Part shown: piece after piece, positions 430 to 3,913 of the stretch
How the letters are laid out: every line of letters begins with the position of its first letter
Numbering within the stretch: position 1 is the stretch's first letter
IMG/VR virus record: IMGVR_UViG_2675903368_000014
Length of the DNA: 3,913 nt
DNA from: a virus
Lineage: Duplodnaviria; Heunggongvirae; Uroviricota; Caudoviricetes
Reading direction: 5' to 3' (one strand)
Notes under the pieces: model-generated
Told to the model about the DNA's origin: nothing
Seen by the model: the letters and a program-made list of their open reading frames with translations, nothing else
Databases searched by the model: none
Program-made: the position numbers and the translations under genes

Positions 430-608
430 CGCATCCTCACGATAATATCCGGGTAGGCGCGATCACTTTCGTCTACTCCGTTACAAAGCGAGGCTGGGTA
501 TTTCCCGGCCTTTCTGTTATCCAAAATCCACTGAAAGCCCAGCGGCTGGCTGAGGAGATAAATAATAAACGGGAGGCGATATGCACAAAGCATCTCCTGT
601 TGAGTTAA
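426..608 (+). CDS. orf60a: Small early protein, lambda orf60a-like (60 aa); alternative ATG at 420 gives 62 aa
   Basis: ATG 426-428 overlaps the exo stop (ATGA) and yields exactly 60 aa ([15 protein letters not shown]...HLLLS), ending TAA 606-608. Size, position directly after exo and the 28-nt overlap with the next ORF match lambda orf60a as I recall its annotation. Confidence 0.7.
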
Positions 609-1536: not shown

Positions 1537-1560
1537 TCGAGGTAAATTATATTACCTCGA
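1537..1560. repeat. Perfect 9-bp inverted repeat with 6-nt spacer (TCGAGGTAA-ATTATA-TTACCTCGA); possible terminator of the minus-strand gene, or a dimeric operator-like site
   Basis: Positions 1537-1545 are the exact reverse complement of 1552-1560. It lies about 35 nt downstream of the minus-strand gene stop (1595-1597). On the minus strand it is followed by CTCGTTTATTCTGG, a weak T-tract; on the plus strand it is followed by A-rich sequence. Confidence 0.35.
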
Positions 1561-1594
1561 TAAATTAACTAAAACTTGCCCGCTATATACTATC

Positions 1595-2197
1595 TCATTC
1601 AGTATCATCACGCGCGGTCTGTGCATATGTTACTACCGCACCTAATGTATTAATTTTCTTTTCAACATAGATAATATTATCGTACTCATAATTGCCATAC
1701 GGATAGCAAATGCGAATATTCTCATGTAGATCGGGGTCATCCACCTCAGCTCCAGAACAACTTTTTGAACTACCGGAAGTATACCGATACGGTGCAACAT
1801 AAGACGATGTCTCTCCAGGCAAAAAATAAGTTAGTGTTGTAAGGGGTATAATCAGAAAAAATCCAGCAAATATGCACATCCCTGCATAAACCTTAAGGTA
1901 TGCTGACAGACTCTTCCAGCCGCTTTGTTTTACTATCCCCTTCTTAACCCAAAACAGAGATAACAGAAAAGCTATTCCCATGCTAAACAGAATGTAATAG
2001 TGGGATATACTCTGATTAAGAAACGTGACCCTGTAAATATCTGCCCGCCACCAGAAGAAAAAGAAAATAAAGATCAGGCCTGAAACTGTCATGCAAATCA
2101 AATAAGGATACGAATCTTTTTTCATGTTTAGCGCCCATAAAATTTTTCCTGCCCCGGACAAATTTACCATCCATTTTTTGCGCAGAAAATAGCTCAT
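1595..2197 (-). CDS. Hypothetical inner-membrane protein, 200 aa, three predicted TM helices plus a Tyr/Cys-rich C-terminal domain of about 74 aa; candidate moron
   Basis: Longest ORF in the AT-rich segment and opposite in strand to all flanking phage genes. An in-frame TAA lies immediately upstream of ATG 2195-2197. Hydrophobic stretches are PYLICMTVSGLIFIFFFFWW, ISHYYILFSMGIAFLLSLFWV and YAGMCIFAGFFLIIPLTTLTYFL. No strong Shine-Dalgarno is present; alternative starts are Met10 (2168-2170) and Met25 (2123-2125). Confidence 0.65.
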   Translation of the reverse strand: MSYFLRKKWMVNLSGAGKILWALNMKKDSYPYLICMTVSGLIFIFFFFWWRADIYRVTFLNQSISHYYILFSMGIAFLLSLFWVKKGIVKQSGWKSLSAYLKVYAGMCIFAGFFLIIPLTTLTYFLPGETSSYVAPYRYTSGSSKSCSGAEVDDPDLHENIRICYPYGNYEYDNIIYVEKKINTLGAVVTYAQTARDDTE

Positions 2198-2369
2198 TAC
2201 TTACTGCACAATAATACACAAAATTGCGTAAATTTTTTGCATGGATTTTAGCTCTTTCAGCCGACGTTTAAGGGGTAAATAGCATTTCCTAAAAGCAACT
2301 GCACCAACCCAACAGAATGAGCTACCGCTTACGTTGAGAGCAAAAAAGTGTATAGCAGCAATGAACAGC

Positions 2370-2400
2370 ATCCTCGCACTGACGAGGATTTCTTTTATCT
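2370..2400 (+). terminator. Candidate intrinsic terminator (7-bp stem, T-rich tail)
   Basis: ATCCTCG (2370-2376) pairs with CGAGGAT (2383-2389) around loop CACTGA, followed by TTCTTTTATCT (2390-2400). It is oriented for + strand transcripts leaving the AT-rich segment, about 40 nt upstream of the 55-aa ORF start. Confidence 0.4.
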
Positions 2401-2439
2401 GAACTCGCTACGGCGGGTTTTGTTTTATGGAGATGATAA

Positions 2440-2607
2440 ATGCACTTCCGAGTCACAGGTGAATGGAATGGAGAACCATTCAACAGAGTTATCGAAGCAG
2501 AGAACATCAATGACTGCTATGACCACTGGATGATATGGGCGCAGATAGCACATGCAGACATAACCAATATTCGAATTGAAGAACTGAAAGAACACCAAGC
2601 CGCCTGA
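2440..2607 (+). CDS. Hypothetical small protein, 55 aa (MHFRVTGEWNGEPFNRVIEAENINDCYDHWMIWAQIAHADITNIRIEELKEHQAA)
   Basis: ATG 2440-2442 is preceded by GGAG (2429-2432) at 7-nt spacing. Stop TGA 2605-2607 lies inside the loop of the downstream terminator hairpin. Same strand as xis/int. Below the ORF-track length cutoff; hand-translated. Confidence 0.5.
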   Translation: MHFRVTGEWNGEPFNRVIEAENINDCYDHWMIWAQIAHADITNIRIEELKEHQAA

Positions 2608-2622
2608 TGGCGGCTTTTTCTT
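2597..2622 (+). terminator. Intrinsic terminator immediately upstream of the pI element
   Basis: 8-bp stem AAGCCGCC (2597-2604) pairs with GGCGGCTT (2609-2616) around loop TGAT, followed by TTTCTT (2617-2622). The reverse strand lacks a T-tract, so it is unidirectional. Confidence 0.6.
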
Positions 2623-2665
2623 GCGTGTAATTGCGGAGACTTTGCGATGTACTTGACACTTCAGG
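2621..2665 (+). promoter_or_regulatory. pI-type cII-activated int promoter region with cII recognition repeat TTGC-N6-TTGC
   Basis: TTGC (2621-2624), GTGTAA, TTGC (2631-2634) lie directly 5' of the xis ATG (2647). This is the known arrangement of lambda pI, whose transcript starts inside xis and so yields Int without Xis. The -10 and start site are not precisely assignable by eye. Confidence 0.7.
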
Positions 2666-2865
2666 AGTGGAACGCACGCCAGCGACGCCCAAGAAGCCTT
2701 GAAACAGTTCGTCGATGGGTGCGCGAATGCAGGATATTCCCTCCTCCGGTTAAGGATGGAAGAGAGTATCTGTTCCACGAATCAGCGGTAAAGGTTGACT
2801 TAAATCGACCAGTAACAGGTAGCCTTTTGAAGAGGATCAGAAATGGGAAGAAGGCGAAGTCATGA
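2647..2865 (+). CDS. xis: Excisionase Xis, 72 aa, lambda-type
   Basis: Translation MYLTLQEWNARQRRPRSLETVRRWVRECRIFPPPVKDGREYLFHESAVKVDLNRPVTGSLLKRIRNGKKAKS is recognised as lambda Xis. The 23-nt overlap with int (2843-2865) matches lambda. Confidence 0.93.
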   Translation: MYLTLQEWNARQRRPRSLETVRRWVRECRIFPPPVKDGREYLFHESAVKVDLNRPVTGSLLKRIRNGKKAKS

Positions 2866-3913
2866 GCGCCGGGATTTACCCCCTAACCTTTATATAAGAA
2901 ACAATGGATATTACTGCTACAGGGACCCAAGGACGGGTAAAGAGTTTGGTTTAGGCCGAGACAGGAGGATAGCAATCACTGAAGCAATACAGGCCAATAT
3001 TGAGTTATTTTCAGGACACAAACACAAGCCTCTGACAGCGAGAATCAACAGTGATAATTCTGTTACGTTACATTCATGGCTTGATCGCTACGAAAAAATC
3101 CTCGCCAGCAGAGGAATCAAGCAGAAGACACTCATAAATTACATGAGCAAAATTAAAGCAATAAGGAGGGGGCTGCCTGATGCTCCACTTGAAGACATCA
3201 CCACAAAAGAAATTGCGGCAATGCTCAATGGATACATAGACGAGGGCAAGGCGGCGTCAGCCAAGTTAATCAGATCAACACTGAGCGATGCATTCCGAGA
3301 GGCAATAGCTGAAGGCCATATAACAACAAACCCGGTCGCTGCCACTCGCGCAGCAAAATCAGAGGTAAGGAGATCAAGACTTACGGCTGACGAATACCTG
3401 AAAATTTATCAAGCTGCAGAATCATCACCATGTTGGCTCAGACTTGCAATGGAACTGGCTGTTGTTACCGGGCAGCGAGTTGGTGATTTATGCGAAATGA
3501 AGTGGTCTGATATCGTAGATGGATATCTTTATGTCGAACAAAGCAAAACAGGCGTAAAAATTGCCATCCCTACAACATTGCATGTTGATGCTCTCGGGAT
3601 ATCAATGAAGGAAACACTTGATAAATGCAAAGAGATTCTTGGCGGAGAAACCATAATTGCATCTACTCGTCGTGAACCGCTTTCATCCGGCACAGTATCA
3701 AGGTATTTTATGCGCGCACGAAAAGCATCAGGTCTTTCCTTCGAAGGGGATCCGCCTACCTTTCACGAGTTGCGCAGTTTGTCTGCAAGACTCTATGAGA
3801 AGCAGATAAGCGATAAGTTTGCTCAACATCTTCTCGGGCATAAGTCGGACACCATGGCATCACAGTATCGTGATGACAGAGGCAGGGAGTGGGACAAAAT
3901 TGAAATCAAATAA
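2843..3913 (+). CDS. int: Tyrosine site-specific integrase Int, 356 aa, lambda-type
   Basis: Translation MGRRRSHERRDLPPNLYIRNNGYYCYRDPRTGKEFGLGRD... is recognised as lambda Int. By my residue count the catalytic residues sit at canonical positions: R212, K235, H308, R311, H333 and nucleophile Y342 (..MASQYRDD..). Stop TAA 3911-3913 is the last codon of the window. Confidence 0.97.
   Translation: MGRRRSHERRDLPPNLYIRNNGYYCYRDPRTGKEFGLGRDRRIAITEAIQANIELFSGHKHKPLTARINSDNSVTLHSWLDRYEKILASRGIKQKTLINYMSKIKAIRRGLPDAPLEDITTKEIAAMLNGYIDEGKAASAKLIRSTLSDAFREAIAEGHITTNPVAATRAAKSEVRRSRLTADEYLKIYQAAESSPCWLRLAMELAVVTGQRVGDLCEMKWSDIVDGYLYVEQSKTGVKIAIPTTLHVDALGISMKETLDKCKEILGGETIIASTRREPLSSGTVSRYFMRARKASGLSFEGDPPTFHELRSLSARLYEKQISDKFAQHLLGHKSDTMASQYRDDRGREWDKIEIK

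Follow-up and report, generated by a model that had tools for sequence, protein, structure and literature searches.

A membrane-protein gene cassette between exo and int of a 434-type lambdoid phage is a moron traced to the P2 family

The stretch of DNA analyzed here (the window, 3913 bases; IMG/VR record IMGVR_UViG_2675903368_000014) runs from the end of exo through int of a lambdoid phage; its identity is 99.8% to phage 2B8 and 99.1% to phage 434. A gene for a small membrane protein lies here on the - strand, and its neighbors are all on the + strand, as in the lambda pL operon. A first-pass annotation, made from the letters of the sequence, had singled out this gene together with a 9-bp inverted repeat to its left and a + strand hairpin to its right, and had proposed that the layout serves to express the gene in the lysogen and to silence it in lytic growth. 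All three elements were found where it placed them. Our analysis shows that positions 1397-2369 are a self-contained accessory-gene cassette (a moron), which in this 434/2B8-type lambdoid phage replaces the ea22-ea8.5 segment. The overall reading that we favor, with moderate confidence, is that this moron has its own promoter and its own 3' hairpin, that the right-hand hairpin is the terminator tL4 of the phage backbone, and that the gene would be subject to transcriptional interference after induction.

The limits of the cassette were set from the gap in lambda homology, from junction alignments and from base composition. Lambda matches only 74% of the window, split over two blocks (49-1396 and 2370-3913 by BLAST), and the 973 bp between these blocks are unrelated to the 1025 bp of ea22-ea8.5 that lambda has at the same place. 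The GC content is 0.33-0.41 over 1401-2400 versus 0.43-0.53 in the flanks. The left joint lies inside ea22 (1381-1398, + strand), of which the first five codons (GTG AGC GAA ATT AAC) are retained, overlapping the orf73 stop codon, and are followed by TAG; the right joint is the foot of the hairpin at 2370. Could the stretch 1397-1487 be the 3' remnant of an ea22-like gene? A tblastn search with its 28-aa reading gave no match outside the same phages. What marks the whole as a moron is that it is a variable filling between backbone genes, that it has its own promoter, active in a prophage, and that its composition is unlike that of the flanks.

The entire cassette is present in 916 of 5426 complete E. 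coli genomes. Among complete phage genomes it was found in only four distinct ones (five records: 2B8 twice, 434, 434B and mEp332), to which an old 434 fragment can be added. In one Logan contig (ERR9997801; L029, 1-3594) the cassette is followed by kilR, gam and recT on the same strand, an order that reflects either an inversion relative to the lambdoid norm or an assembly chimera.

The membrane gene itself is listed as an open reading frame (ORF) of 200 aa (1595-2197, - strand), and this has to be corrected, the true gene being 176 aa long (1595-2125, - strand) with its ATG at 2125. Diverged homologs from Salmonella, Klebsiella, Enterobacter and Cedecea (42-78% identity) all begin at Met25 of the longer ORF, which is that ATG, and the 24-codon upstream extension is interrupted by in-frame stop codons in a 96% identical variant (L025), in an E. 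coli P2-like prophage (L014) and in a further relative (L006). The 176-aa form is also called in some genomes by the Prokaryotic Genome Annotation Pipeline (PGAP), and by the EDL933 annotation behind the Cappable-seq data described below. Other annotations disagree: RefSeq mostly has 200 aa, the 434 record has 188 aa plus a 56-aa 'membrane protein', and the 2B8 record has two small fragments. Among these annotated versions, comparison supports only the 176-aa form starting at 2125. The ratio of nonsynonymous to synonymous substitution (dN/dS) versus relatives is 0.04-0.14, which points to purifying selection, and the - strand ORF is accordingly a real gene. The 56-aa ORF (2201-2371, - strand; 'putative membrane protein' in the 434 record) was rejected; it is frameshifted and has many stops in L025.

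A promoter of the gene's own, reading leftward from within 2198-2440, was what the first-pass annotation had put forward as the test of its proposal, and published data bear it out. In E. coli O157:H7 EDL933, Cappable-seq covering four media, two growth phases and three replicates (PMC10469882) detected a canonical transcription start site at 892672 (+) in seven of eight conditions for gene 4195 (892751-893281, the 176-aa form; PMC10469882, supplementary files 6 and 8). The signal at this start is 2.0-16.4 versus 6.3-7.4 at the neighboring ybhC start, and it is the sole canonical start listed between int and bet (PMC10469882). The EDL933 cassette lies within prophage CP-933K, where the 200-aa ORF occupies 892679-893281, and the 141 nt that span promoter and leader (window 2260-2120) are 100% identical there; the EDL933 start therefore maps to window 2204 (- strand), the G of TTGTGCA-G-TAAG. 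A -10 hexamer TATTAT, read from the sequence at 2211-2216 (- strand), ends 7 nt ahead of the mapped start. A good -35 is lacking; the sequence offers only an A-tract (GCAAAAAA, 2240-2233). These data show a weak, sigma-70-type promoter that is active in the resident prophage under ordinary growth.

A simple consensus promoter scan of the - strand over 2126-2440 found nothing, and a position weight matrix scan left the 2204 promoter unranked owing to its poor -35. The latter scan and conservation had together suggested an extended -10 candidate (TTTTCT-17-TAAATT with an upstream TG, 2189-2161), which was discarded in favor of the published start, 50 nt further upstream at 2204; the motif therefore falls within the leader. 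This 5' leader is 78 nt long (2126-2203, - strand), or 79 nt with the start base 2204. It contains a palindrome, TTTTCTGCGCAAAAAA, at 2190-2175 (given by the repeat tool as overlapping 12-nt arms at 2173-2190), and a conserved motif, TGGTAAATT, at 2169-2161. In the form TG[GA]TAA[AT]TT (2161-2169, - strand) the latter is invariant in lambdoid, P2-like and even Cedecea chromosomal copies and resembles an extended -10; it may act as an element of the leader or as another promoter used only under certain conditions. Over the 137 nt upstream of the gene, identity to L014 is 77% without gaps, whereas synonymous sites are ~57% different, and the region is therefore constrained. A structured 5' leader was considered as well and set aside, the consensus RNA fold being weak (-4.2 kcal/mol).

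Where does the cassette come from? P2-like prophages have diverged homologs of the gene, flanked by gpQ (portal) on one side and gpA (replication) on the other and convergent with the latter. In P2 itself this gpA-gpQ locus, a cos-proximal hotspot, contains old/tin, and in other cases it contains many anti-phage systems (Rousset et al. 2022, PMC9122126). The hotspot location holds for the P2-like homologs and not for the chromosomal members of the family. With L014, whose protein is 78% identical, the window has DNA in common from 1488 to 2262, which takes in the gene with 137 nt on its upstream side and ~107 nt on its downstream side. P88, Chuche, L014 and L006 share …TCAAAAAAATTGTGCAAATTTGTGCACTATTGTGCAG up to the base aligned with the mapped start, after which they carry differing cargo. 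Next to the promoter the window retains a remnant of P88/P2-family backbone from both sides of cos (2233-2293, - strand; matching L014 3740-3925 and P88, L032, 2751-2945), including AGGAAATGCTATTTACCCCTTAAACG from the other side of the P88-like cos. The ~95 nt between the retained pieces are gone, among them the cos-like GCTGTTCCCCCGTCACC; this missing segment is probably the cos site, to judge from the P2 cos sequence. In P88-like phages it is flanked by the direct repeat ACGCGGGC, which suggests that it was lost by deletion between these repeats once the piece had been captured from a P2-family prophage. By these alignments, the lambdoid cassette appears to be a cos-deleted piece of a P2-family prophage, taken from the gpA-gpQ (old/tin) hotspot.

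The same backbones help to judge a set of TTGTGCA-like heptamers (TTTACGCA, TTGTGTA and TTGTGCA) that are directly repeated at 10-bp spacing over the core promoter (2205-2232, - strand). In Salmonella and E. coli P2/P88-like backbones the repeats are perfect in three copies (L006 3894-3923; L032 ~2915-2945); they may bind a repressor at the core promoter, serve as a packaging signal or simply be promoter elements. Part of the array, TTGT-N6-TTGT (TTGTgtattaTTGT, 2221-2208), bears the label 'CII binding site consensus ttgynnnnnnttgy' in the 434 record OL657226. If it were a CII-activated promoter, the establishment of lysogeny would turn on the gene, or else an RNA antisense to the pL transcript. 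Real CII sites, of which pI (2620-2633) is one, do have this 10-bp spacing, but the tetrads are TTGT, unlike the TTGC of pRE, pI and paQ, and they fall at about -17 and -7 of the mapped start rather than astride its -35. Moreover, by our arithmetic ~0.5 chance matches to the degenerate pattern are expected in the window, and the repeats are better conserved, as three perfect copies, in the P2/P88-family backbones, phages that are not known to carry cII. A CII-activated promoter at this place is accordingly very improbable.

Turning to the left-hand side, the inverted repeat at 1537-1560 (TCGAGGTAA-ATTATA-TTACCTCGA; arms 1537-1545 and 1552-1560) is perfect over 9 bp with a 6-nt spacer, and is the sole perfect repeat in the window of 9 bp or more with a loop of 3-8 nt. 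When the whole window was shuffled 500 times with dinucleotides preserved, such a repeat turned up somewhere in about 9% of the shuffles (mean 0.116 per window), and taken alone and window-wide it is only mildly unusual. It lies, however, 34 nt past the stop codon of the membrane gene, and the mean scaled to the ~60 nt after that codon is ~0.002 by our arithmetic. As - strand RNA it folds with -12.9 kcal/mol (z = -3.0), and it is within the DNA common to the window and the P2-like locus L014. At pair 4 of the stem the window has A-U, L025 has G·U and L014 has G-C; at pair 2 the window has C-G, for which L014 has U·G. The G·U and U·G combinations pair only as - strand RNA. The loop varies in both sequence and length, and closer variants (L029-L031) are near-identical and add no information on the stem. 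Such wobble and compensatory changes, with a variable loop, favor an RNA hairpin of the gene's own transcript over a DNA operator.

Of the two roles that the first-pass annotation had offered for this repeat, the first, a structure near the 3' end of the membrane-gene transcript, thus agrees with its behavior as a - strand RNA hairpin that travels with the gene. The second, a site for a dimeric regulator, is disfavored by the same stem changes and by the unconserved loop. A dimeric DNA-binding protein would find here a perfect 9-bp dyad with an AT-rich spacer, and since the spacer reads TATAAT on the - strand, with TTTAGT 16 nt upstream, its operator could overlap a promoter. But the L025 and L014 changes break the DNA dyad and yet keep the - strand RNA pairing (G·U, U·G, G-C), the spacer varies and loses its TATAAT in L014, and no transcription start is reported where such a promoter would begin; the nearest, at 1473 and 1456, have their own -10s. 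We regard an operator as highly unlikely.

The starts at 1473 and 1456 are weak - strand starts just past the hairpin, seen in two and one of the eight EDL933 conditions, respectively (PMC10469882). They read antisense into orf73, from -10s at 1483-1478 (TATTAT with an upstream TG) and 1467-1462 (TATACT). Weak + strand starts, in the pL direction, were likewise recorded inside the membrane gene, at 2018 (two of eight conditions) and 1684 (three of eight; PMC10469882). The former fits a promoter-like site, TAAACA-16-TATACT, at 1984-2011, and RNAs from both would run into tL4.

The right-hand hairpin belongs to the backbone. On the + strand, 2370-2389 reads ATCCTCG-CACTGA-CGAGGAT and is followed by the tail TTCTTTTATCT. 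Lambda has a homologous hairpin in which one pair is U·G, as it is in L025; this variant pairs on + strand RNA only, which fits the role of tL4 on that strand. In GenBank M60848 (the old 434 record) a 't-L4' feature at 2292-2322 corresponds to window 2366-2396. From its annotation and its lambda homolog, the 2370-2389 hairpin is the tL4 terminator (2370-2396, + strand) of the lambda/434 pL operon, lying outside the cassette at the right-hand mosaic joint. The description of the gene as bracketed by hairpins consequently holds for 1537-1560 and fails for 2370-2400, where lambda homology resumes.

Further + strand terminators or terminator-like hairpins lie on both sides. Terminator predictions for lambda (PMC4195576) correspond to window 490-512 (t1), 1085-1103 (t2), the 2370 hairpin (t3), 2401-2420 (t4) and 2597-2616 (t5). 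The terminator-like hairpin at 490-512 is in the orf60a homolog, upstream of the cassette in the pL direction, and that at 1085-1103 is between a 71-aa ORF and orf73. Immediately beyond tL4 there is a second, tandem terminator-like element (2401-2428, hairpin 2401-2420), and t'I (2597-2624; annotated t'-I in M60848) lies just upstream of the CII-dependent pI promoter, whose element TTGCGTGTAATTGC is at 2620-2633. In the whole window, 13 terminator-like sites were counted versus 3.8 ± 2.0 in shuffles. An Rfam scan of the whole window at E ≤ 1 returned a single chance match (20.5 bits versus a gathering score of 70).

The + strand genes of the window are the end of exo, homologs of orf60a and orf63 (DUF1382), the 71-aa ORF, orf73, ORF55 (2440-2607), xis (2647-2865) and int (2843-3913). 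The orf73 homolog (1163-1384), which is convergent with the membrane gene, encodes a TraR/DksA-type zinc-finger protein (Pfam PF01258, PHROG 54). Between ORF55 and t'I, 434 has ~420 bp extra with ORF114 (L001 3074-3495; window 2599-2619), which are absent from the window and from 2B8; in the KplE1-like remnant L025 the cassette is followed by an IS4 insertion element, an ORF114 homolog and torI. An antisense start was also noted inside xis, at window 2755 (- strand; EDL933 892121 (+), five of eight conditions).

In lambda and 434 all of these + strand genes sit in the leftward pL operon, and for this reason the + strand is the pL direction. The promoter pL, N and nutL are outside the window; from the gene order shared with 434 and lambda we infer that they are present. 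In lambda, it is the pL transcript that yields Int and Xis once the prophage is induced, and polymerase modified by N reads past the terminators from tL1 through tI. A polymerase that has come from pL to the cassette has already passed 490-512 and 1085-1103; it needs N antitermination to have done so, and would therefore also pass tL4 and t'I. The suggestion that pL transcripts end at 2370-2400 is thus untenable for N-modified ones, which must pass tL4 to reach xis and int. Plausibly, the tandem tL4 and 2401-2420 hairpins protect xis and int from stray + strand starts.

As for the switch, its geometry is confirmed: the membrane gene is antisense to any pL transcript that reaches xis and int. 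The two opposed promoters are the mapped - strand start at 2204 and the presumed pL beyond the end of the window. In a lysogen, pL would be repressed and unmodified RNA polymerase would be stopped at the upstream terminators; the membrane gene would be the sole active unit of the region, and tL4, the 2401-2420 hairpin and t'I would insulate xis and int from stray + strand starts. On induction, no terminator would stop the N-modified polymerases from pL; on their way to xis and int they would traverse the cassette antisense to the gene and pass over its weak promoter (2204-2240), and antisense pairing together with transcriptional interference would lower expression of the membrane gene. Three helices are predicted to tether a periplasmic beta-barrel, and the protein would act at the envelope for the lysogen, for example by excluding other phages. 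By analogy with known cases, turning the gene off by convergent transcription in lytic growth is plausible and a reasonable inference, and some drop in its expression is likely because antiterminated pL polymerases would cross a weak promoter.

Is the orientation regulatory at all? The cassette may be a plain constitutive moron, with a promoter that is always on and an antisense orientation that has no regulatory role, but reflects the mode of capture or avoids feeding transcription into xis and int. We consider this a serious rival, though less probable than interference. It would account for a promoter active in seven of eight conditions in a prophage that lacks any pL, and for a gene that has stayed intact in settings without an opposing lytic operon, namely decayed prophages and chromosomes. 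In P88, besides, the same backbone promoter region faces oppositely oriented cargo, so that orientation is not rigidly selected. Set against these points, the gene is convergent with the early lytic operon in both phage families, and antiterminated pL polymerases running over a weak promoter are the classic condition for interference, under which some reduction is hard to avoid.

That said, several observations weigh against a single moron unit, closed by its own hairpin and shut down by interference. The transcription start data come from CP-933K, a cryptic prophage (its truncated bet is joined to an inverted nin region, and there is no pL upstream), and not from an inducible prophage with intact pL. 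The additional weak starts at 1473, 1456, 2018 and 1684 amount to local transcription beyond one clean unit. Some homologs are single ordinary chromosomal genes in Enterobacter, Klebsiella and Cedecea. The 1537-1560 stem has only four GC pairs of nine and is followed by three non-U bases and then a broken U-run (tail CUCGUUUAUUCU); in L014 the U-run is absent, there is one A·C mismatch, and the fold has -8 kcal/mol (z = -0.6).

By these features of its sequence, 1537-1560 would be a doubtful intrinsic terminator. It may instead protect or process the 3' end, with release of the transcript further on, either Rho-dependent on the untranslated antisense stretch or at a further - strand terminator-like site at 1248-1233. 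The weak, interrupted U-run, lost in L014 where the stem is kept, and the presence of the 1248-1233 site argue for this alternative, but 1537-1560 does pass a simple terminator scan on the - strand and has the position, 34 nt past the stop codon, that is typical of a terminator. We hold the alternative only tentatively, and list the element as the 3' RNA hairpin of the membrane-gene transcript, a candidate weak intrinsic terminator or 3'-end protector.

What the protein does was approached through its predicted structure and its relatives. The predicted layout is three transmembrane helices followed by a C-terminal small beta-barrel with two invariant cysteines, the predicted topology is N-in, C-out, and the AlphaFold2 model has a predicted local distance difference test score (pLDDT) of 83.8. 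Pfam and PADLOC searches with the protein gave no match, nor was there a profile match to known anti-phage defense or exclusion families; the sole PHROG match, over the C-terminal half, is to PHROG 1416, which has no function assigned. A profile search of 1.8 billion representatives returned 61 proteins at E ≤ 0.001, of which the full-length ones have ~170 aa and the others are shorter fragments. The protein most likely acts at the envelope, to the benefit of the lysogen. A phage-related function is likely but not assured, since the existence of chromosomal members leaves a phage-specific role open to doubt.

The moron concept is reportedly due to Juhala and Hendrix, with lambda bor and lom and HK97 gp15 as examples. 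Like lambdoid morons, the cassette is an extra unit between backbone genes with lower GC, its own prophage-active promoter and its own 3' hairpin, its product is a small envelope protein and, like bor, it lies on the other strand from the lytic operon. Unlike them, it replaces ea22-ea8.5 and is no pure insertion, and its origin can be traced to another phage family. With the P2 old/tin hotspot it shares homologs that stand there, convergent with gpA, and the window keeps the promoter region and cos-flanking sequence of that hotspot; unlike the hotspot, the cassette is in the lambdoid exo-xis region, has lost cos, and encodes a protein with no PADLOC defense-family match. The hairpins of the surrounding backbone are known elements of the lambda/434 pL operon (compare tL3, tL4 and t'I), and what is new is the mosaic joint of the cassette abutting tL4.

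Interference between convergent promoters has been demonstrated for coliphage 186 (pR/pL), and in lambda paQ is antisense to Q. As in those cases, polymerases from a strong lytic promoter would cross a weak, opposed promoter used in the lysogenic state; unlike them, the promoters are several kilobases apart, with pL outside the window, and they are not part of the lysis-lysogeny decision circuit. The protein recalls P22 SieA, T4 Imm and HK97 gp15 in being a small inner-membrane protein of the resident state with, in this case, a predicted periplasm-facing domain; it differs in that no sequence or fold similarity to them was found and in that its family also has chromosomal members. The membrane cassette is a new, traceable member of the well-known moron class, and its layout, with a promoter and a hairpin of its own and facing the lytic operon head-on, is what textbooks describe for morons and brings in no new principle. 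A bolder view would make it a portable module for the resident state only, in which a promoter from the phage backbone is combined with a gene and an RNA hairpin, set head-on to the early lytic operon in both settings so that lytic transcription would shut it off, and yielding a new kind of inner-membrane, periplasm-facing exclusion or defense protein in about one sixth of sequenced E. coli. We consider this view unlikely as a whole.

For annotation, the consequences are that many database entries start the gene 24 codons too early, and that the 56-aa 'membrane protein' ORF and the 'CII site' of the 434 record are not backed by comparisons. For the biology of the host, ~17% of complete E. coli genomes, including O157:H7 and O55:H7, as well as Shigella sonnei carry the membrane gene in their prophages. 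It is intact even in decayed ones, such as CP-933K/Sp3 and the KplE1-like remnant, which argues for a benefit to the host. With its start codon known, its transcription start mapped and its origin in an anti-phage hotspot, the gene is a sensible candidate for exclusion and defense assays.

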